From an uncultured virus (IMG/VR IMGVR_UViG_3300030103_005758) (Duplodnaviria > Heunggongvirae > Uroviricota > Caudoviricetes), in the IMG/VR virus record IMGVR_UViG_3300030103_005758: 20,000 nt of DNA. One strand, written 5' to 3'. This document shows, piece after piece, positions 3,299 to 14,817 of this stretch (the stretch's first letter is position 1; every line of letters begins with the position of its first letter). The notes beneath the pieces are model-generated. The model did not search any database. It had not been told where the DNA came from and saw only the letters and a program-made list of their open reading frames with translations. Made by a program: the position numbers and the translations under genes.

Positions 3299-5035
3299 AT
3301 GTATAAAAAAATATACGAGCAAGGTAGAGGAGAAAATAAACATTTAATACATCTTTGGACAGACGAGGGTTACGAAAAGATTGAATGGAACAACTATGCT
3401 TATAAAGAATGTTCGCCTAATGATGCAGAATTTAAAGGTTTGAAAGGTGAACCACTTCGTAAAACACACACTTGGGATAGAAAAACCCCTAAACTCCACT
3501 TTAGTGATATCTCAGCTCACCAAAAATTCCTTATAGAAAAATATGGTATTGACGATGAACCTTCTACTTCACATAAGGAGGTTTTTTTTGATATCGAGTG
3601 TGAGATGGGAGGAGCATTGACAGAAGAATATATTTCTAATGCACCTAAGCCAATTACTTCTATTGCTTGGTATGATAAACAAGCAGATTGGTGGTCAATC
3701 GTTATTTTAGATAAAAAAGGTCAATTAAAACATACTAAAACTAAAAATAAAGAAATTATACCTTTACCACATGAGGCAGATCTATTAGATACATTTTTAA
3801 ATAAAATGGAAGAAATTCAACCAGATATGTTAATTGGGTATAATAGTGACTATTTTGATATTCCTTATTTATACTATAGAATGTGTAATGTGTTGGGAGA
3901 AACAGATGCAAAAAGATTATCCCCTATAGGAATAGTTAAATACAAAAAGAATAATCAATATTGGTATAAAAAAGACCAATTTGTAGATATAGCAGGTGTT
4001 GAATCTCTTGATTATATGAGATTACATAAAAAATATAGTTGGGAGGATGAACCAAGTTGGAAGTTAGATTCTATTGGAGAAAAATATGCTGGTATAAATA
4101 AAATTGAATATGATGGTTCTTTAGATAGATTATTTGAAGAGGATATACATAAATTTATTCAATATAACTTTGTTGATGTTGAAATATTAGTTGAATTAGA
4201 TAAAAAATTACAATATATAGCTTTAACAAAAAATTTAGCCCATAAAGGTAAAGTAAAATATAGTGAAGTGTATGCTTCATCTAAAATCCATGATGGTGCT
4301 ATCTCAGCTTACCTATTATCTCAGGGAATAATACCCCCAGGACGCCCTAAGGGGGAAAGTAAATTAAATTATGCTGGTGGTTACTTATTTTGCCCTAAAG
4401 CAGGGTTATACAAATATATGTTTGATGAAGATTTAACATCACTATATCCTTCTATTATAATGACTTTAAATATAGGTAGAGAAACTATTACAGATACATT
4501 ACCCGAAAAATTAGAAGATTTTGGTCCTTATGGTGGTAAATCTGATCGAAATAACTATCTAGGTTTAGGTGATTTAAAAGAAATGGATCCAGATGATGAA
4601 ATTAGAGTTATGGATCCTAATGAAAATATTCAAAACACAACTGTAGGTAAAGTAATTGAAGTAATAGAAAAGAATAATTTTTCAATAGCGGCAAATGGAA
4701 CCTTTTTTAGAACTGATAAACAATCAGTATTATCTACTATTTTAAATAAATGGTTTGATGAAAGGGTCATTTATAAAAATAGAATGAAGCACTGTTACCA
4801 AAAGGGTGATAATGAAGGTGGTGCTAAAAATCATTTACTACAATATACAATGAAAATTTTACTGAATTCTTTATATGGAGCTACTGCCTTACCATCATTT
4901 AGATATGGTTTACCAAAATCTATACTAAGTGAAGCAATTACATTATCAGGGTGGAGAATCATACAAGAATCTGCATTAGTTGCTAATACACATATGAATA
5001 AAGTTTTAAGGAATGAAATAAAGTTAGCATTATAA
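3299..5035 (+). CDS. DNA polymerase family B, N-terminal part (3'-5' exonuclease, palm motif A, fingers motif B)
   Basis: ExoI FFDIECE, ExoII GYNSDYFDIPY, ExoIII YNFVDV, motif A DLTSLYPSII, motif B KILLNSLYG, then EAITLSG. Stops before motif C. Confidence 0.95.
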   Translation: MYKKIYEQGRGENKHLIHLWTDEGYEKIEWNNYAYKECSPNDAEFKGLKGEPLRKTHTWDRKTPKLHFSDISAHQKFLIEKYGIDDEPSTSHKEVFFDIECEMGGALTEEYISNAPKPITSIAWYDKQADWWSIVILDKKGQLKHTKTKNKEIIPLPHEADLLDTFLNKMEEIQPDMLIGYNSDYFDIPYLYYRMCNVLGETDAKRLSPIGIVKYKKNNQYWYKKDQFVDIAGVESLDYMRLHKKYSWEDEPSWKLDSIGEKYAGINKIEYDGSLDRLFEEDIHKFIQYNFVDVEILVELDKKLQYIALTKNLAHKGKVKYSEVYASSKIHDGAISAYLLSQGIIPPGRPKGESKLNYAGGYLFCPKAGLYKYMFDEDLTSLYPSIIMTLNIGRETITDTLPEKLEDFGPYGGKSDRNNYLGLGDLKEMDPDDEIRVMDPNENIQNTTVGKVIEVIEKNNFSIAANGTFFRTDKQSVLSTILNKWFDERVIYKNRMKHCYQKGDNEGGAKNHLLQYTMKILLNSLYGATALPSFRYGLPKSILSEAITLSGWRIIQESALVANTHMNKVLRNEIKLAL

Positions 5036-5063: not shown

Positions 5064-6593
5064 ATGAATATATCAATTATAGGAGGAGGTACAGCAGGTT
5101 GGTTATCTGCTCTTCATCTAAATAAAATAAATCCAACAGCTGATATTTCTTTAATTGAATCTAAAGATATAGGAATAGTAGGAGTTGGTGAAGGAGCAGT
5201 TCCTCTTTTTGGGGATATGTTATTAGATCTTAATATAGACATTATTGATTTTGTTAATAGTGTTGACGGTACTTTTAAATTAGGGATTTCTTTTGAAGGT
5301 TGGAAAAATTTAGATCATAAATTTTTATATGGGTTTCCTAATTTTAATAGTAATGATGTAGCTAATTTTGAAAAAACTAAATTTGGTTCACAGAAATATG
5401 ATATATATCCTATTTTTGCAAATATGATAGCTAATTCTCAAGATTGTAATATAATGCAAAATTCAATTTTAAGTTACTTAAATAAAGTTCCTTTTACTTT
5501 TGATGAAGAATCTAAAAATGGTATCACCCAAGATGGAATTTCTCACGTATCTTTCCATTTTGATGCCTACAAAGCAGCTCAGTATTTTAGAAAAATTTCA
5601 GAATCTAGAGGTATAAAAAGAATTGAAGGAAAAGTTATTGATTTTAAATCTTCTAAAGACCAAAATATAAAAAGTATTATTACTGAAGATAAAAAAGAAC
5701 ATAAATGTGATTTTGTTTTTGATTGTACAGGGTTTGCTAAATTAATTATAGGTAAGCACTTTAAATCAAAATGGACTAGCTATAAAAGCCACTTAACTAC
5801 TAATGAAGTTATAAGTTTTAGATTAAAGTATAAAGAAAATGAAGAAGTATTTCCTTATACTAAGTCGATTACAATGAAAAATGGTTGGATGTGGCAGATT
5901 CCATTACAAAGTAGAATTGGGGCTGGGTATGTTTATGATAATAGATACATTACTGAATCTCAAGCTAAAGAAGAAGTTGAAGAATTTTTAGGTGAAGAGA
6001 TAGAAATATTAAAAAAAATTAATTTTGAACCTGGAATTTTTGAAGAGGGATGGATTAAAAATTGTGTATCAATAGGTCTTTCTAGTGCCTTTGTAGAACC
6101 TTTAGAATCTACTTCTATAATGTTTACTATTTTGCAATTAAGATTTTTTAAAAGTAAAGATTTATTAGAACCAAATGAATTACTTCAAAAAAGATATAAT
6201 AAATATCAAACAAAATCATTTAAATCAATAATTGATTTAATTCAATTACATTATTTGTGTGATAGAAATGATACTAAATTTTGGAAAGATAGAAAAAAAT
6301 TACCTATAACAACTCCTTTACAAAAACGTTTAAATGATTTTAAAAAATATCCTCTATCAGATTCAACATTTTTTGATGGTGTATGGGGGGCTTTAGGGTT
6401 TTTTGTAGTAGGATATGAAAGTAGTGTTAAAAATTTTCCTAAAAAACTCTACCAATTTTATAATAAAAAGCATAATTTTGATGGATTATTAAAAAATTGG
6501 ATTAAAGATTATAAACAATATTTTGATAATAAACTACCTAAATACTTTAAACATAAAGATTTATTAGATTATTTTAAAACAATAAAACCATGA
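5064..6593 (+). CDS. Flavin-dependent (tryptophan) halogenase-like protein
   Basis: GGGTAGW FAD-binding motif, GVGEG, GTFKLGI (position of the catalytic Lys in PrnA), DCTGF, GWMWQIP (WxWxIP) and FVEPLEST. Confidence 0.88.
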   Translation: MNISIIGGGTAGWLSALHLNKINPTADISLIESKDIGIVGVGEGAVPLFGDMLLDLNIDIIDFVNSVDGTFKLGISFEGWKNLDHKFLYGFPNFNSNDVANFEKTKFGSQKYDIYPIFANMIANSQDCNIMQNSILSYLNKVPFTFDEESKNGITQDGISHVSFHFDAYKAAQYFRKISESRGIKRIEGKVIDFKSSKDQNIKSIITEDKKEHKCDFVFDCTGFAKLIIGKHFKSKWTSYKSHLTTNEVISFRLKYKENEEVFPYTKSITMKNGWMWQIPLQSRIGAGYVYDNRYITESQAKEEVEEFLGEEIEILKKINFEPGIFEEGWIKNCVSIGLSSAFVEPLESTSIMFTILQLRFFKSKDLLEPNELLQKRYNKYQTKSFKSIIDLIQLHYLCDRNDTKFWKDRKKLPITTPLQKRLNDFKKYPLSDSTFFDGVWGALGFFVVGYESSVKNFPKKLYQFYNKKHNFDGLLKNWIKDYKQYFDNKLPKYFKHKDLLDYFKTIKP

Positions 6594-6939: not shown

Positions 6940-7203
6940 ATGGCATTAAAAAAACAATCAATAAGACAAGGAGTTTATGTTTTAATAGATGGAGTTAACG
7001 CTTCTAAAGAAGAACTTATTACATTAAGCGAAACATGGACCGAAAAAAAAGAAGTATTTTTTAGAAAAATGCTTCAACAAGGAGGTAATTTTAGAATGGA
7101 TGGAAAAGATTTTATAGTTAAAATTAGAGAAAATCTTCAACTTAGATCAGATGGAACTAAAGATGGGGGAGTAGTTACAATCCCAGGAGGAAGAAGTTTT
7201 TAA
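6940..7203 (+). CDS. Hypothetical 87-aa protein, translationally coupled (TAATG) to the PolB C-terminal gene
   Basis: The ORF fills the gap exactly and its stop overlaps the next start; no motif recognised. Confidence 0.7.
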   Translation: MALKKQSIRQGVYVLIDGVNASKEELITLSETWTEKKEVFFRKMLQQGGNFRMDGKDFIVKIRENLQLRSDGTKDGGVVTIPGGRSF

Positions 7204-8126
7204 TGAAACACTTAGAGAACACCCCTTGGTATATTTGTAATGAAAATGATGAGAATCTATGTGCTTATGTAGATACTGATTCAAATTATTTTAATGCAGA
7301 ACCATTACTTAATCATTTGTATCCTAACTTTGAAGAATTATCTGATGAAGAAAAAGATTTAAAATTAGAACAAATTGCTTTAAAATACCAGGATATCATT
7401 ACTGATCATTATAATTTATTAGCTAAAGAATGTTTTAATGTTGATAAACATAGATTAGAAATGAAAACCGAGTGTGTTATTCGTTCAGCTTATTTTAGAG
7501 CCAATAGACGTTATGCCCAATGGATTACAAAACAAGAAGGTATAACTAAAGAAACATTAGATGTTAAGGGTTTAGAATATAAAAAATCTAATTTTCCAAA
7601 ATTATTTGGTACATTTTTTAAAAATATATTAGAAGATGTTTTAAAGGGTACTGAGCAGGATGAAATTGATACCCGTATTTTAAATTTTAAGAAAAAGATA
7701 TTAACAGAAATACCTATTGAACAATTAGGTAATCCAACAGGTGTAAAAACATTAAATAAATACACCGAACGTAAACCAGTTGGGGGAGAGGCATTTACTG
7801 TTATAAAAAAAGGTGCACCCGCTGCTGTTAGAGCAACAATTAAGTATAATGATTTACTTAGATATTGGAAATTAGATAGTAAACATTCACCAATTGTTCA
7901 AGGTGATAAAGTTAAATGGATCTATTTAAAGAAAAATCCATACAATATTGAGGCATTAGCTTATCTTGATTTTGATATGCCTGATAAAATTAAAGAATTT
8001 TTAGATAAATTCGCAGACAAAGAAAAAGTTTTTGATACTATATTATTAAATAAATTAGAAGGATTTTATGATGATTTAGGTTGGAGCTTAAATACAAACC
8101 CTTATGTAAACCAATTTTTTATATGA
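7203..8126 (+). CDS. DNA polymerase family B, C-terminal part (motif C, palm and thumb)
   Basis: YVDTDSNYF (motif C), RRYA, DVKGLEYKKS, GDKVKWIYLK: the remaining PolB motifs. Confidence 0.95.
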   Translation: MKHLENTPWYICNENDENLCAYVDTDSNYFNAEPLLNHLYPNFEELSDEEKDLKLEQIALKYQDIITDHYNLLAKECFNVDKHRLEMKTECVIRSAYFRANRRYAQWITKQEGITKETLDVKGLEYKKSNFPKLFGTFFKNILEDVLKGTEQDEIDTRILNFKKKILTEIPIEQLGNPTGVKTLNKYTERKPVGGEAFTVIKKGAPAAVRATIKYNDLLRYWKLDSKHSPIVQGDKVKWIYLKKNPYNIEALAYLDFDMPDKIKEFLDKFADKEKVFDTILLNKLEGFYDDLGWSLNTNPYVNQFFI

Positions 8127-8845: not shown

Positions 8846-9561
8846 AAAAAAGTCATATAGTAAGTAATATACAAAAATATTTTTTAGGTGGTTTATCTAA
8901 AGGAGTTATTTGGAAAATACAAAATAACCAAGCAGTTATTGAATTTACTACAGAAACAAAAGATACTGTAGGAAAATTATTTTTTAATATAGATCTAGAT
9001 GAGTGTGAAATTGGTATAAATAATACTGATGCTTTATTACGTTTACTAAGTATAACAGATGAAGAGTTACAATTAGAATTAGATACCAAAGAAACAGGAT
9101 TACCTACTAAATTAAGAATTCAAGATAAAAAATATGATTTAGATTATAATTTAAGTGATCCTAAGATTATTGAAAAAGTACCTAATGTACAAGAAATAGA
9201 TTATGATTTTACTTTTAAACTAAATGATGAATTTATTAGTAGCTTTTTAAAAGCACACAATGCATTAGAAAAAACAAATGAATTCACTTTAAATACAGCT
9301 ACTACTCCACAAGGGGAAAATGTTGTAGAACTAGTAATAGGAGAGAGAGAAAGACACGCTAATAAGATTAAATTCACTGAACCTGCTGAATTTGAAACAG
9401 CAAGTGATTTATTACCATTTTCAGCAATTGTAATTAGAGAAATACTTTCAGCTAATAAGGGTAGTGAAGGTTCGGCATCTGTAAGTAATAAAGGATTATT
9501 AAAAATTTCATTTAATACAGATGAAAGTTTAGTAGAATATTTTGTTGTAAGACAGCAATGA
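8842..9561 (+). CDS. Sliding clamp (T4 gp45/PCNA-like processivity factor)
   Basis: About 239 aa, acidic, alternating beta/alpha pattern ending in GLLKISF...VEYFV; sits in the PolB/clamp-loader neighbourhood. Start at the ATGA overlap (8842) with GGAG upstream. Confidence 0.7.
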   Translation: MKKSHIVSNIQKYFLGGLSKGVIWKIQNNQAVIEFTTETKDTVGKLFFNIDLDECEIGINNTDALLRLLSITDEELQLELDTKETGLPTKLRIQDKKYDLDYNLSDPKIIEKVPNVQEIDYDFTFKLNDEFISSFLKAHNALEKTNEFTLNTATTPQGENVVELVIGERERHANKIKFTEPAEFETASDLLPFSAIVIREILSANKGSEGSASVSNKGLLKISFNTDESLVEYFVVRQQ

Positions 9562-10115
9562 TAGAAAAACGTATAAAAGTTTATGATAATTTATTTTCTA
9601 GTCAATTAGAAGATATTATTGAAAAATTATGTTTAACTCAACTTCCTTATTATTATACCCCTAATATTGCTACTGAACAACACACTATATTATCTCCTGG
9701 TTTTTCCCATTTTTTTATTAATTCCTTATCAAAACCCCATTCTGAAAAATATACTCCCTTTTTTAATAATATATTATATACTTTATCAAATAAATTATCT
9801 ATTGTAGTAGAACAAATAATAGCAGGTAGAGTATTCATGCATTTACCTTCTCCTAATCCCGGAGCTGATACTATTCATACAGATTTAGACACTCCTCATT
9901 GGGTAGCACTTTATTATATCAATGATAGTGATGGTGATACTATATTTTTTGATAATAATGAAAATGAAATTAAAAGGGTATCTCCTAAAAAAGGTAGAAT
10001 TGCTTTTTTTGATGGCTCCATCCCACATTGTAGTTCTAGACCTTCTAAAAGTACACGAGTTATAGTTAATTTTGATTTTAATGGTACATTTTTTGGAGAG
10101 GAAAAAAAGAATTAG
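9558..10115 (+). CDS. 2OG-Fe(II) oxygenase (phage type)
   Basis: IHTD (HxD), LYYINDSDGDTIFF, PKKGRIAFFDGSIPH, RVIVNF. Confidence 0.85.
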   Translation: MIEKRIKVYDNLFSSQLEDIIEKLCLTQLPYYYTPNIATEQHTILSPGFSHFFINSLSKPHSEKYTPFFNNILYTLSNKLSIVVEQIIAGRVFMHLPSPNPGADTIHTDLDTPHWVALYYINDSDGDTIFFDNNENEIKRVSPKKGRIAFFDGSIPHCSSRPSKSTRVIVNFDFNGTFFGEEKKN

Positions 10116-10123
10116 TATATTTA
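10092..10123 (+). promoter_or_regulatory. Bacteroidota-type promoter for hsp20 (TTTG-N20-TATATTTA)
   Basis: TTTG at 10092-10095 and TATATTTA at 10116-10123, close to the -33 TTTG / -7 TAnnTTTG consensus. Confidence 0.65.
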
Positions 10124-10129
10124 TGATAA

Positions 10130-10191
10130 ATAACTGAGACTCTAGGGCGAGCAGTTATAGTTTTATGTTTAACCGAGTAGCTAAGGCACTC
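10130..10191 (+). promoter_or_regulatory. Structured 5' leader of hsp20 with two hairpins
   Basis: ATAACTG-aga-CTC[TAGGGC]GAG-CAGTTAT (10130-10158) and GAGT-a-GC[TAAG]GC-ACTC (10175-10191); GC-rich against an AT-rich background. Confidence 0.65.
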
Positions 10192-10205
10192 ACAAATTTA
10201 ATGAT

Positions 10206-10619
10206 ATGAATACATTTATTTATGAACGTACACCGTTCGACATTTTAATTAGAAATTTTTTCCAAGACGCAAGCACATATTCTCCGCTTGCAGAAACCAA
10301 AGTTCCACATCCAGTAGATATTTACACTTCAGATAAAGGATTATCCTTTGATATCGCTTGTACGGGAATTAGTAAAAAAGATATTGAATTAAACATTCAA
10401 GACAATCTTTTAAAAATCAATTATAATAAACCAGAAGAAGATAAAGATGATAAAGACTATATCCATAGGGGTATTGCTAAAAGATCATTTAATCTAGGAT
10501 GGAAAATTGATAATAAATTTGATTTATCTAAAGCTACAGCTAGCTATAATGATGGGTTATTATCAATTATTATACCATTCTCAAAGGGATCAGAATTAAA
10601 AACTCTGCAAATTAAGTAA
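10206..10619 (+). CDS. Small heat-shock protein, Hsp20/alpha-crystallin family (IbpA-like)
   Basis: PVDIY, IACTGISKKDI, YIHRGIAKRSF, ASYNDGLLSIIIP. Confidence 0.92.
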   Translation: MNTFIYERTPFDILIRNFFQDASTYSPLAETKVPHPVDIYTSDKGLSFDIACTGISKKDIELNIQDNLLKINYNKPEEDKDDKDYIHRGIAKRSFNLGWKIDNKFDLSKATASYNDGLLSIIIPFSKGSELKTLQIK

Positions 10620-10622
10620 AAA

Positions 10623-10647
10623 AAGTTCGCCCTAGAGCTTGGTTTTT
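10623..10647 (+). terminator. Terminator-like hairpin after hsp20; its loop is complementary to the 5' leader loop
   Basis: AAGTTC[GCCCTA]GAGCTT, followed by GGTTTTT and preceded by an A run. Confidence 0.5.
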
Positions 10648-10669
10648 ACGTGTATTTTTCGTATATTTA
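10639..10669 (+). promoter_or_regulatory. Bacteroidota-type promoter for the orf93-groES-groEL unit (TTG-N20-TATATTTA)
   Basis: TTG at 10639-10641 and TATATTTA at 10662-10669; same spacing as the hsp20 promoter. Confidence 0.65.
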
Positions 10670-10697
10670 CGGCAATAATCAGTTATAAAACACACAT

Positions 10698-10979
10698 ATG
10701 GCAAATCCAAATTTTAAAGGTAGACCTGTTGGATCAGGTAAAAATACATTTATAGAAGACCCATTATTAGGGGATTTTAAAATAGTAATTGATGAATACA
10801 GTTATAATGTATTTGATATTACTAAAAATAAAACTATAGGTTTTTATTCAACATTAGAACAATCAGTTTTAGCAATTGCTAGTAAACAAATGTTAGAAGA
10901 TAGAACTTATAGTTTAACAGAATTCGCTAAAGAATTTAAAGAAACACATTTAAAACTTAAAGAAGCAATTTTAAAATAA
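10698..10979 (+). CDS. Hypothetical 93-aa protein
   Basis: ORF downstream of a promoter and coupled to groES by TAATG; N-terminal KGRPVGS resembles an AT-hook-like motif. Confidence 0.7.
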   Translation: MANPNFKGRPVGSGKNTFIEDPLLGDFKIVIDEYSYNVFDITKNKTIGFYSTLEQSVLAIASKQMLEDRTYSLTEFAKEFKETHLKLKEAILK

Positions 10980-11269
10980 TGAGTAAATTAAGACCAGTTA
11001 ATGGAAACGTTATCCTTAGACCTATAGAGGAAGAGGAGCAAATGGCGGGAAATATTATTATTCCTGACATGGGTAAAGAAAGACCCGAAATGGGAGAAAT
11101 TATAGCAATTTCAAATGTTTATAATTTTAATAAAGGTGAATATGCACCTTCAACATTAGAAGTTGGAATGAAAGTCTTAATCCCAAAAATGGGTGCACAG
11201 GCTATAACCATTGAAGGAGAAGAATATTATATAACAGCACAAAATTCAGTGCTATCAATCGTAGAATAA
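10979..11269 (+). CDS. groES: Co-chaperonin GroES (Cpn10)
   Basis: LRPVNGNVIL, GNIIIPD mobile loop, KERPEMGEIIA, VGMKVL, IEGEEYYI; directly upstream of groEL. Confidence 0.92.
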   Translation: MSKLRPVNGNVILRPIEEEEQMAGNIIIPDMGKERPEMGEIIAISNVYNFNKGEYAPSTLEVGMKVLIPKMGAQAITIEGEEYYITAQNSVLSIVE

Positions 11270-12909
11270 TGACAGAAACAAGTTTCGGAACAGATTTAAA
11301 AAATAAGCTTTTAGAGGGAGTTCAAAAGTTAAATAATAGTGTAGCGTCAACATTAGGACCTGCAGGTAGAACAGTATTAATTAAAGAAGATACTGGTGAA
11401 ATTAAAGTAACTAAAGATGGTGTTACTGTAGCTAAAGCATTTAAGGAATTAGAAGATCAAACTGAATCTATAGGTGCAGAATTAGCTAAAAAAGTCTCTA
11501 CTAAATGTGCTAATGAGGTAGGAGATGGTACAACAACTTCAACAGTATTAGCTACTGCTATTTTAGAAGAGGGAATTAGACAAATTAATGATGGTTCTAA
11601 TCCTGTTAATATTAAAAAAGGTATAGATGAAGCTGTCACAACAGTAGTAAATAGACTAAAAGAAATGTCCACTGAAATTACTGAAGATACCCAAATTAAA
11701 GAAGTAGCAACTATATCAGGTAATAATGATGTTGAAATAGGTAATTTAATTTCTACTGCTTTAGATAAAGTTGGTAGAGATGGAATTGTTACTATTGAAG
11801 AATCTAAAACAGGTGAAACTTCATTAGAGATAGTTGAAGGTATGCAATTTGATAGAGGTTTTAAATCTCCTTATTTTGTCACGGATAATAATACAATGCA
11901 AGCTGTATTAGATGATCCTTATGTATTAATTTTTGATGGAAGAATTACACAAGCATCAGAATTAATTAATGTATTAAATAAAGCAAGTGGTGAATCTAAA
12001 CCTATTTTAATTGTAGCCGAAGATATTGATGGTGAGGCATTAGCAACATTAATTGTTAATAAAATGAGAGGTACTGTTAAAGCAGTAGCTGTTAAAGCAC
12101 CAGAATTTGGAGACAGAAGAACTATGGCTTTAGAAGATTTAGCTACAGTTACAGGTGGACAAGTTTTATCTAAAAATAAAGGACATAAACTTGATAAAAT
12201 GTCTCCTGTTCAATTTAATGAACTATTAGGTACAGCTAGAAAAGTAACAGTAGAAAAAGAAACTACTACTATTATAGACGGTAAAGGTGGAGAAGAAGCT
12301 ATTACTTCTAGAGCTGAAGAAATTAAAACACAACTTGATAATGCTAATTCTGCATTTGAAAAAGAAAAACTACAAGAAAGATTAGGTAAGCTAATTGGTG
12401 GTGTAGCAATTATTAATGTTGGTGGCAATTCAGAAATTGAAATTAGAGAAAAAAAAGATAGAGTAGAGGACGCATTATTTGCTACTAAAGCTGCTTTAGA
12501 TGAAGGTATTATAATAGGTGGAGGTACTGCTTTATTATATGCTGCAAATACTATTAATGTAATTTCTGAAAACAAAGATATAGCCATTGGTAGAAGAATT
12601 GTTAAATCAGCTATACAAGAGCCATTTTTAAAGATTTTAAATAATGCTGGTCATGAAACAAATGATGTTAGATTTGCATCTTACGGATTAAGTAGTGCCG
12701 ATCCTAATTTTTGGTTAGGATTAGATTATAAAAATCTAGAAATGGTTAATTTTAAAGAATTAGGTATAATTGACCCTAAAAAAGTAACTAGAATTGCATT
12801 AGAAAATGCTGCCTCAATAGCGGGTACTATTCTTACTACTGAATCTGTTGTTTATGAAAAAAGAACAGATAAAGAAGAAGAACCTAACCCAATGATGGGA
12901 ATGATGTAA
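11269..12909 (+). CDS. groEL: Chaperonin GroEL (Cpn60)
   Basis: TLGPAGR, TKDGVTVAK, GDGTTT, EGMQFDRGFKSPYF, KAPEFGDRR, EKLQERL, GGGTAL, and a Met/Gly tail. Confidence 0.97.
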   Translation: MTETSFGTDLKNKLLEGVQKLNNSVASTLGPAGRTVLIKEDTGEIKVTKDGVTVAKAFKELEDQTESIGAELAKKVSTKCANEVGDGTTTSTVLATAILEEGIRQINDGSNPVNIKKGIDEAVTTVVNRLKEMSTEITEDTQIKEVATISGNNDVEIGNLISTALDKVGRDGIVTIEESKTGETSLEIVEGMQFDRGFKSPYFVTDNNTMQAVLDDPYVLIFDGRITQASELINVLNKASGESKPILIVAEDIDGEALATLIVNKMRGTVKAVAVKAPEFGDRRTMALEDLATVTGGQVLSKNKGHKLDKMSPVQFNELLGTARKVTVEKETTTIIDGKGGEEAITSRAEEIKTQLDNANSAFEKEKLQERLGKLIGGVAIINVGGNSEIEIREKKDRVEDALFATKAALDEGIIIGGGTALLYAANTINVISENKDIAIGRRIVKSAIQEPFLKILNNAGHETNDVRFASYGLSSADPNFWLGLDYKNLEMVNFKELGIIDPKKVTRIALENAASIAGTILTTESVVYEKRTDKEEEPNPMMGMM

Positions 12910-13848: not shown

Positions 13849-13880
13849 ATAGGGGGGCTTTGCTCCCCTATTTTATTTTA
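13849..13880 (+). terminator. Rho-independent terminator
   Basis: ATAGGGGGGC-ttt-GCTCCCCTAT stem (one G-U pair) followed by TTTATTTTA. Confidence 0.8.
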
Positions 13881-13889
13881 TTATATTAA
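13859..13889 (+). promoter_or_regulatory. Possible promoter overlapping the terminator (TTTG-N19-TATATTAA) for the clamp-loader unit
   Basis: TTTG at 13859-13862 and TATATTAA at 13882-13889, before the ATG at 13897. Confidence 0.45.
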
Positions 13890-13896
13890 TGGTTAT

Positions 13897-14817
13897 ATGA
13901 TTAAAGATCACACTTTATTTACTGAAAAATTTCGACCAACTAATCCTAAAGATTATATTGGAAACGAAGTATTTAAATCAAGTTTAAACCAATGGATAGA
14001 ACAACAAGATATTCCACATATCTTATTGTATGGTCCCGCAGGTACAGGTAAAACTACAGCAGCTAAATTAATTATAACTAACCTAGATTGTGATTCAATT
14101 TATATCAATTGTTCAGATGAAAATGGTATAGATACAATTAGAGAAAAAGTTAAATCATTTGCTTCTGCTGCAACATTCCGCGAATTAAAAGTGGTTATAA
14201 TGGATGAAGCAGATTTCTTAACGATTAACGCACAAGCAGCATTACGTAATGTTATTGAAACATATTCTAAAACAACACGTTTTGTATTTACTTGTAATTA
14301 TATTGAACGTATAATTGATCCTATACAATCTAGAACATCAGTATTTGAAGTATTACCTCCTTCTAAATTAGAAGTGGCTAAACGTTGTGCTACTATTTTA
14401 GATGCAGAAGGCTGTAACCGTGCAACTGATGATATTGTAGAAATTGTAAATAAAACTTACCCTGATATTAGAAAAACATTAAACTTATTACAATCGTGTA
14501 TAGTTTATGATGTTGCAGGAACATTTTTACAATTAAATAAAGATATTGTTAATCAAAAACAATATACAGATCAAATTATTGATTTAATTAAATTAAAAGA
14601 TGCTAAGGCATTTAATCAAATTAGACAAATTGTAGCTGATTCAAATATAAGAGACTACAATGAATTATATAGAGCCTTATTCGAAAACCTAGATTCATTC
14701 CACAACCCAGTGTTAGGTACAATTATTATTGCCGAATCACAATATCAGTCTGTTATGGCTCCTGATAAAGAAATCACTTTCATGGGATGTATCGCAAATT
14801 TATTAAAAAATGGATAG
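13897..14817 (+). CDS. Clamp loader AAA+ ATPase subunit (RFC small subunit/T4 gp44-like)
   Basis: EKFRP, Walker A GPAGTGKTT, INCSDENGID, Walker B MDEAD, AQAALR, IIDPIQSR (SRC-like), PDIRK. Confidence 0.93.
   Translation: MIKDHTLFTEKFRPTNPKDYIGNEVFKSSLNQWIEQQDIPHILLYGPAGTGKTTAAKLIITNLDCDSIYINCSDENGIDTIREKVKSFASAATFRELKVVIMDEADFLTINAQAALRNVIETYSKTTRFVFTCNYIERIIDPIQSRTSVFEVLPPSKLEVAKRCATILDAEGCNRATDDIVEIVNKTYPDIRKTLNLLQSCIVYDVAGTFLQLNKDIVNQKQYTDQIIDLIKLKDAKAFNQIRQIVADSNIRDYNELYRALFENLDSFHNPVLGTIIIAESQYQSVMAPDKEITFMGCIANLLKNG

Follow-up and report, generated by a model that had tools for sequence, protein, structure and literature searches.

Complementary arms on either side of hsp20

The 20,000-nucleotide (nt) stretch of DNA analysed here (IMG/VR record IMGVR_UViG_3300030103_005758, from an uncultured virus, and called the window below) carries hsp20, a small heat-shock gene, and our subject is a pair of complementary segments that lie just outside that gene, one in its leader and the other just past its stop codon. 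The hsp20 reading frame (10206-10619, 137 amino acids; Pfam HSP20 E-value 2.1e-11) was taken from a list of open reading frames (ORFs), as were those that follow it: a 93-amino-acid ORF at 10698-10979, groES at 10979-11269 and groEL at 11269-12909, the last two also being recovered by Pfam and PHROGs scans. The initial annotation of this locus, made from the sequence alone, had considered read-through from hsp20 into groES-groEL; in the window, the next gene is the 93-amino-acid ORF rather than groES. These four genes, and all of the RNA features described below for the hsp20 transcript, are on the plus strand.

The heart of the element is an 11-nt inverted repeat, CTCTAGGGCGA (10140-10150) and TCGCCCTAGAG (10627-10637), which is 100% complementary over a spacing of 476 nt and which the initial annotation had located correctly. 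Nowhere else in the 20-kb window is there an exact copy of the 11-mer, and the 7-mer CTAGGGC, too, is confined to the two arms. An extension to about 20 base pairs (bp), joining 10132-10152 to 10625-10644 with three G-U pairs and one bulge, had also been claimed; it was reproduced, and RNAduplex carries it further, to a 24-bp duplex between 10127-10152 and 10625-10648 at -33.5 kcal/mol that contains three G-U pairs and one-base bulges at 10131 and 10139. The 5' arm of this duplex (10127-10152), with a G+C-rich core at 10140-10152, is supported by RNAduplex, by minimum free energy (MFE) and centroid folds and by covariation. The 3' arm (10625-10648), supported by RNAduplex and by the whole-mRNA fold, starts 6 nt past the hsp20 stop codon, and its last G-C pair, at 10642, is followed by UUUUU (10643-10647).

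When the predicted message (10127-10650) is folded as a whole, the long-range helix is present in both the MFE and the centroid structure. The MFE is -113 kcal/mol (z-score -4.97), and 0 of 100 shuffled sequences folded as well. The helix ends at 10152, 53 nt upstream of the hsp20 ATG, and the start region is not paired with it in this fold. A complementary run of at least 11 nt between the two intergenic regions arose in 23 of 5000 mononucleotide shuffles, and among the 21 pairs that can be made from seven intergenic stretches of the window, the pair flanking hsp20 was the only outlier (z-score -3.6, against -1.1 to +1.5 for the rest). Judged on the window alone, then, the match is unlikely, yet possible by chance. 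An Rfam cmscan of 9500-11500, with E-values allowed up to 10, returned four unrelated weak matches (E 0.84 or worse), none of them on the arms or the leader.

Each arm can also fold by itself. The initial annotation had described two hairpins with complementary loops, and the loops UAGGGC (10143-10148) and GCCCUA (10629-10634) do belong to the MFE folds of the two local segments. The 5' hairpin (10130-10158) is built from stems 10130-10136/10152-10158 and 10140-10142/10149-10151 and is weak, at -7.5 kcal/mol (z-score -1.75 against shuffles). The 3' hairpin (10623-10640; stem 10623-10628/10635-10640) reaches -6.0 kcal/mol (z-score -0.95) and was not called by a terminator scan; neither hairpin is better than shuffles. 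As had been predicted, the long-range duplex and the two local hairpins occupy overlapping positions and exclude each other.

The pairing in related loci

Similarity of the hsp20 protein alone was used to fetch related loci, 173 in number, from viral and metagenome contigs; the searches retained the best 80 of 216 and the best 80 of 513 confirmed relatives. After the window had been added, 139 loci from marine contigs were non-identical and had both flanks, at 46-100% protein identity. The element that follows the promoter-like box and the element that follows the stop codon vary widely between lineages, and within each locus they are reverse-complementary. We counted 27 different 5' cores among the 139 loci, each standing opposite its own complement, as in the pairs CTCTAGGGC / GCCCTAGAG, CTCGAGAGC / GCTCTCGAG, CCTCAGAGC / GCTCTGAGG, CCCCAGAGC / GCTCTGGGG, CTTTAGGGA / TCCCTAAAG, CCCTAGAGC / GCTCTAGGG, CCTTAGGGC / GCCCTAAGG, CTTGAGAGC / GCTCTCAAG and AGCTAGGGC / GTCCTAGC (5' core first). 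The covariation that the initial annotation had suggested seeking in the flanks of homologous genes is thus there to be found. Central pairs were counted in MAFFT columns that had not been fitted to any structure: 84 of the 139 loci have all nine canonical and 117 have eight or more, compared with 7.3% and 30.7% when flanks are combined across different cores. Fewer than seven central pairs were counted in 17 loci, and in most of these the alignment is out of register.

We also compared the flanks without any alignment, pairing the leader, cut after the promoter box, with the 40 nt past the stop codon. (The upstream segments were at first unrestricted, and this version of the test caught A+T-rich pairing of promoter with promoter; the segments were then cut after the box.) The duplex of a leader with its own partner has a median energy of -28.9 kcal/mol and a median length of 20 bp, and reaches -20 kcal/mol or better in 132 of 139 loci, whereas swapped partners average -15.8 kcal/mol and shuffled 3' flanks -10.0 kcal/mol. 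Because many loci share a core class, just 29 of the 139 leaders find their top or joint-top partner in their own flank, whose median rank is 3. Once the segment cuts were widened, five of the remaining loci (L083, L149, L157, L165 and L167) gave duplexes of -22.6 to -32.9 kcal/mol, bringing the total at -20 kcal/mol or better to 137 of 139. In whole-mRNA MFE folds, at least 10 long-range pairs form in 135 of the 139 loci, as against 87 when the 3' flank is that of another locus chosen at random.

Covariation was scored on a MAFFT alignment of the complete locus (alignment A2) containing 61 sequences; these had been selected by eye among the 120 distinct flank combinations so as to cover the range of classes, and misfits were kept in. 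When the long-range helix is taken by itself, the paired cells make up 65.1%, compared with 36-51% when the partner is slid by one to three columns. It has a covariation score of 0.227, where shuffles give 0.158, and 150 cells are changed on both sides, against 82 in shuffles; none of 500 shuffles reached either value. It is these comparative data, with 137 of 139 loci in agreement, that exclude a chance match, as the initial annotation had supposed from a window in which the shuffles are suggestive only. From the sequences of the relatives, we consider it very likely that the pairing of the hsp20 5' and 3' arms is real, occurs in RNA and is under selection.

The initial annotation had further argued for pairing at the level of the sense transcript. 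The arms covary across relatives, and the sense duplex is the more stable one in 123 of the 139 loci, equal to the antisense duplex in 2 and less stable in 14, because of the G-U pairs. Counted by core class, of which 32 were distinguished, the sense strand is better in 25, with 4 and 3 in the other outcomes. This bias is supportive of an RNA-level element, and indecisive.

A number of observations weigh against a selected RNA helix throughout the family. Two loci, L037 and L042, are genuine exceptions whose 5' and 3' arms come from different classes and are mismatched; both have the look of recombinants between arm classes. Of the five measures taken on alignment A2, two, the number of pairs changed on both sides and the number of further pair types, do not rise above shuffles (114 and 305 of 500 shuffles reach the respective values), and the shuffle controls for the pair counts ignore relatedness among the sequences. 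The nine central columns contain 46 G-U cells and 32 A-C cells, a slight excess that amounts to no clear bias, and most of the strand asymmetry is owed to a few G-U pairs conserved in the outer helix, where the 3' arm also carries the TTTG/TTGG of the next promoter. The gene downstream of hsp20 in L042 is of the window type.

The anatomy of the helix is similar across the family. Its median start is 3 nt after the promoter-like box, its 5' arm ends a median of 53 nt upstream of the start codon, and the 3' arm extends from a median of 8 nt to a median of 28 nt past the stop codon. By a crude criterion, 96 of the 139 loci have the 5' core in a local hairpin loop, 76 have the 3' core so placed and 62 have both, so that a kissing-loop layout would be a frequent feature of the family rather than a peculiarity of this window. 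The design described in the initial annotation, two weak hairpins with complementary loops, recurs in relatives with quite other letters. The particular stems of the window are weakly supported across the family. In the register of the window, the local hairpins have 60.7% of cells paired and a covariation score of 0.158 against 0.137, a value reached by 7 of 500 shuffles, and the stems take other registers in other classes. Local 3' folds in the relatives have a median of -4.4 kcal/mol, and the long-range duplex is more stable than the summed local folds in 135 of 139 loci.

A second leader hairpin, at 10175-10191, is independent of the long-range duplex. It has CUAAGG, which resembles a Shine-Dalgarno sequence, in its loop, a local MFE of -6.3 kcal/mol (z-score -2.83), and is retained in the whole-mRNA fold. 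On alignment A2, 95.6% of its cells are paired and five of its six pairs have changed on both sides. The loop itself is constant across relatives, as A(G/U)CUUAGG(C/A). The CUAAGG loop is not a partner of the 3' arm, and its sequence, compared by eye, is independent of the 3' arm classes. In a few distant relatives (L144, L150 and L173), the same CUUAGGAG lies 8-10 nt upstream of the ATG and resembles a plain ribosome binding site. Another hairpin, GAACG-UACAC-CGUUC, falls within the first hsp20 codons (10223-10239); it was flagged as terminator-like by the scan, is retained in the whole-mRNA fold, and its nucleotides are conserved in many relatives.

The same pairing was sought around hsp20 in four cultured T4-like marine phages with about 30-35% Hsp20 identity, and in these the duplex of the 5' and 3' flanks was no better than shuffles (in kcal/mol, flank duplex then shuffles: Syn9 -25.3 and -25.9, Melnitz -16.6 and -18.2, S-RSM4 -26.1 and -25.5, P-TIM40 -17.7 and -27.4). 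As these four phages are without the pairing, there is no cultured model at hand. Each of the four (L174-L177) has a G+C-rich hairpin about 25-45 nt upstream of the hsp20 start codon, and leader hairpins may be more widespread among phage hsp20 genes.

Transcript ends and genomic setting

Upstream of the 5' arm lies the promoter-like region of hsp20 (10092-10127), consisting of TTTG (10092-10095), a 21-nt spacer, the box TATATTTA (10117-10124) and an overlapping TATGAT (10122-10127). A consensus promoter scan picked TGGAGA-16-TATATT at 10094-10121. A Bacteroidota-type promoter, TTTG-N18-21-TANNTTT, was considered and set aside: although it fits the hsp20 region, the window shows no enrichment for it (7 matches, where 7.4 are expected). 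In 137 of the 139 related loci, a box TAYNTWTW occurs at most 30 nt upstream of the leader. Going by the promoter-like box, transcription of hsp20 would start at about 10129-10139. Some relatives in the group of the window (L001, L004, L011 and similar loci) have a small stem-loop, GTTGTAAGACAAC, adjoining the hsp20 promoter box, about 20-35 nt upstream of it; this layout of stem-loop plus promoter is the composite that has been described as PeSL in T4-like phages.

At the other end, the promoter-like region of the next gene (10638-10668) comprises CTTGG (10638-10642) and a box at 10660-10668, which can be read as CGTATATT (10660-10667) or TATATTTA (10661-10668). The upstream element of this region overlaps the tail of the 3' arm. 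A box YNTAWATT lies at most 75 nt past the stop codon in 111 of 139 loci, and since a promoter-like box follows the 3' arm so often, hsp20 is probably a one-gene transcription unit. In metatranscriptomes, four RNA libraries have assembled contigs over parts of the locus; the pieces start at 10131, 10146, 10630 and 10654, with carry-over of DNA possible, and 9700-9903 and 10057-10107 are uncovered.

The window has a G+C content of 28.6% and carries phage replication genes. Pfam and PHROGs scans identified a family B DNA polymerase in two separate ORFs (3299-5035 and 7203-8126), between which lie three ORFs, including a tryptophan-halogenase-like gene at 5064-6593; the other genes include clamp-loader subunits, an exonuclease, 2OG-Fe(II) oxygenases and the chaperone cluster. 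The clamp-loader and polymerase proteins share 34-39% identity with their counterparts in T4-like marine and cyanobacterial phages, and groEL is 55% identical to that of Flavobacterium phage immuto. On the strength of these identities, we take the source to be a distant, uncultured T4-like marine phage. A search of a phage collection with the DNA of 9900-11000 gave no match. The Hsp20 proteins of L006, L012 and others carry a short Cys-rich insert (..CCEVNDC..; columns 78-90 of alignment A1), which the copy in the window is without.

Further downstream, within 13851-13897, there is an ordinary strong hairpin with a U-run, AUAGGGGGG-CUUU-GCUCCCCUAU followed by a U-rich stretch (terminator at 13851-13880), and directly after it a promoter-like TTATATTAAT box. 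The phage therefore appears to use normal local terminators elsewhere.

Possible roles of the paired ends

We propose that the hsp20 mRNA very probably folds into a panhandle, in which a helix of 20-24 bp encloses the whole 414-nt reading frame together with its leader. The reasons are that the complementarity of the ends is kept by matched changes and that the helix is the most stable structure available to either end; both arms would lie on one transcript. As transcription proceeds, the 5' arm would first form a small hairpin that displays its G+C-rich core in the loop. The core of the 3' arm, once transcribed, would contact this loop, in many relatives through a loop-loop contact, and the duplex would then zip outward to the 3' U-run and the A-rich 5' end. 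The helix and the U-run could together act as the terminator, or reinforce the terminator, of a one-gene hsp20 unit. With both ends of the mRNA buried in a duplex, the message would be shielded from 5'-end-dependent endonucleases and from 3' exonucleases, and the chaperone message could last through infection. We give this explanation as a whole, a paired-end hsp20 unit in which the helix serves closure and termination, a probability of about 0.5; the functional part of it, that the helix closes and protects the ends and terminates transcription, falls slightly short of even odds. A duplex of about -29 to -33 kcal/mol would, from its energy, not melt at sea temperatures, and only the first loop-loop contact could be heat-sensitive.

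A bolder reading, which we think doubtful, is that the element is an intrinsic terminator of split design, its upstream stem half being supplied by the transcript's own 5' end, and that the message thereby becomes a closed-loop mRNA of a prokaryotic kind. If it were true, only messages that come from the hsp20 promoter with a free leader would stop here, sealing both of their ends in one helix. With the stop codon 6-8 nt and the start codon about 50 nt from the helix, terminating ribosomes would be released near the start, the helix being transiently opened, and translation, re-initiation and mRNA lifetime would be coupled.

Closure combined with termination faces several difficulties. The U-run is moderately enriched in the relatives: the 8 nt after the last G-C pair hold 4.53 T on average, against 3.08 expected, and at least five T in 75 of 139 loci. 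We found no precedent for a terminator whose upstream half is 480 nt away, and a stem split in this manner may form too slowly to stop the polymerase. The ordinary hairpin-plus-U terminator at 13851-13880 indicates that the phage uses the conventional kind elsewhere. The transcription start would depend on a promoter-like box of uncertain type, and a start at about 10138 would leave only 14-15 bp of the helix in the RNA.

The same complementarity could serve other ends, and we weighed three of these against the panhandle. One lies at the level of DNA: the arms would be inverted repeats acting as recombination or recognition sites around hsp20, whether they bound an invertible segment, end a mobile cassette as its terminal repeats or serve PeSL-like shuffling, with covariation arising through copying or through one protein that reads both ends. 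The arms do surround a single accessory gene in varying neighbourhoods, L037 and L042 would on this account be recombinants between arm classes, and T4-like phages are described as shuffling accessory genes at composite terminator/promoter motifs (PMC4122927). Against this, 0 of 139 loci have an inverted arrangement, and the promoter box lies upstream of the 5' arm, outside the repeats, in 137 of 139; the conserved module begins at the promoter. The number of core variants, the single compensated changes, the bulges, the G-U pairs and the sense bias across core classes fit an RNA rather than a protein site. The arm motif is not repeated elsewhere in the window, and none of the 28 ORFs scanned with Pfam or PHROGs in these 20 kb belongs to a recombinase or transposase family. 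We therefore consider a DNA-level role highly improbable.

Two other functions would leave the helix as it is. The helix could be a processing stem for RNase III, cut by a double-strand-specific RNase to release hsp20 from longer transcripts that include groES and groEL, or to set the lifetime of the message. Its length (about two turns: 24 bp in the window and, as a median, 20 bp in its relatives), its small bulges and the fact that it encloses a complete functional RNA would suit such a substrate, and the icaR duplex between 5' and 3' untranslated regions (UTRs) is reported as one (PMC3868564); moreover, the U-run is weak in about half of the relatives, which makes read-through transcripts plausible. 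Nothing in the sequence is specific to RNase III, however, and with a promoter-like box for the next gene after the arm in 111 of 139 loci, the downstream genes need no co-transcript; we think this role unlikely. The remaining candidate, which the initial annotation favoured, is a regulated conformational switch between local hairpins and duplex, its balance set by temperature, by a terminating ribosome over the start of the 3' arm or by a protein, and its output being either termination versus read-through into the chaperonin genes or hsp20 translation. That the two states are mutually exclusive, that 62 of 139 loci have the core in a hairpin loop at either arm, that the 3' arm starts a median of 8 nt past the stop codon, within reach of a terminating ribosome by usual footprint sizes, and that groES, read by eye, lies immediately 3' of hsp20 in many relatives are all in keeping with it. 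The duplex, on the other hand, is 15-25 kcal/mol below both local folds combined in 135 of 139 loci, leaving little to switch at equilibrium, so that any switch would be kinetic. The helix ends well before the start codon (median 53 nt) and leaves it unmasked, and no ligand, protein or thermometer-like feature was found, nor any match in Rfam. We regard a switch as quite unlikely.

It is instructive to set the panhandle beside known systems. Like a Rho-independent terminator, the hsp20 element joins a G+C-rich stem to a U-run, has A-rich sequence to match on its upstream side and lies right after a stop codon, but the upstream half of its strong stem is about 480 nt away at the 5' end, and the hairpin available locally is weak (-6 kcal/mol) and was not called. 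The ROSE and fourU thermometers are local hairpins of the 5' UTR that mask the ribosome binding site and melt with heat. The likeness to these ends with a structured RNA at a small heat-shock gene: the initial annotation's view that the element resembles neither is upheld by the lack of an Rfam match and by a start region lying outside the helix, which in addition draws on the 3' flank and, by its energy, should be much too stable for melting. Processing stems are formed by the flanks of 16S and 23S rRNA, and T7 early mRNAs carry RNase III sites; like the phage helix, such stems can be long-range helices of about two turns formed from both sides of a complete functional RNA, yet they enclose rRNA or are local intergenic hairpins, whereas the helix described here encloses a protein-coding message.

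Closer in kind are mRNAs whose own UTRs pair. According to the account of Braun, Durand and Condon (2017, PMC5737220), a 14-bp long-range pairing of the 5' and 3' UTRs of Bacillus subtilis hbs mRNA limits endonuclease cleavage in the leader and thereby affects stability. This is the nearest experimental parallel: it is an intramolecular pairing of leader and 3' UTR in a short monocistronic mRNA, highly expressed in the case of hbs, and its function is one that we favour for the phage helix. The phage helix differs from the hbs pairing as presented there in being longer (20-24 bp), in lying at the extreme ends, where it overlaps the terminator region, and in being known from sequence alone; it is backed by covariation in more than 100 loci and has no sequence similarity to hbs. 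In Staphylococcus aureus icaR, as summarised from Ruiz de los Mozos et al. (2013, PMC3868564), the 3' UTR pairs with the Shine-Dalgarno region and feeds RNase III. Both cases involve a double-stranded stretch that arises where the 5' UTR of one bacterial mRNA pairs with its 3' UTR; on that summary, icaR pairing masks the ribosome binding site and its 3' UTR is long, whereas the phage helix (5' arm 10127-10152) spares the start region and its 3' arm starts 6 nt past the stop.

PeSLs (Arbiol et al. 2010; Comeau et al. 2014, PMC4122927) combine a terminator with a promoter in T4-like phages, and the latter source portrays them as repeated, near-identical direct motifs that are thought to mediate recombination. 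At hsp20, the 3' arm or its local hairpin is directly followed by a promoter-like box of uncertain type (CGTATATT, 10660-10667) next to an accessory gene of a T4-like phage, and there are relatives with a stem-loop before the hsp20 promoter box. The hsp20 arms differ from PeSLs so described in being inverted, covarying and unique to hsp20 in the 20-kb window, where CTAGGGC occurs nowhere else. Among the matches listed in searches of open-access full text, none describes a terminator formed at long range, a panhandle in a phage mRNA or an RNA element of phage hsp20.

The covariation indicates that the hsp20 pairing is an uncatalogued member, absent from Rfam, of a rare kind, the intramolecular 5'-3' UTR pairing of bacterial mRNAs. 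Among bacterial mRNAs, such pairing is known in only a handful of cases, icaR and hbs among them, and each came to light through experiments in a single species. In the present case an entire family of phage messages shows it, over more than 100 loci and 27 core variants and with arms about 480 nt apart, and the covariation is of a quality usually confined to structured non-coding RNAs. The family constitutes a natural series of mutants and compensatory double mutants for the effects of end-to-end closure on termination, RNase protection, processing and ribosome recycling. A search for covariation between the flanks of genes, beyond leaders alone, can reveal RNA structure that family libraries have missed. 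For the biology of these phages, the finding points to special handling of a chaperone message that stands beside phage-encoded GroES and GroEL.

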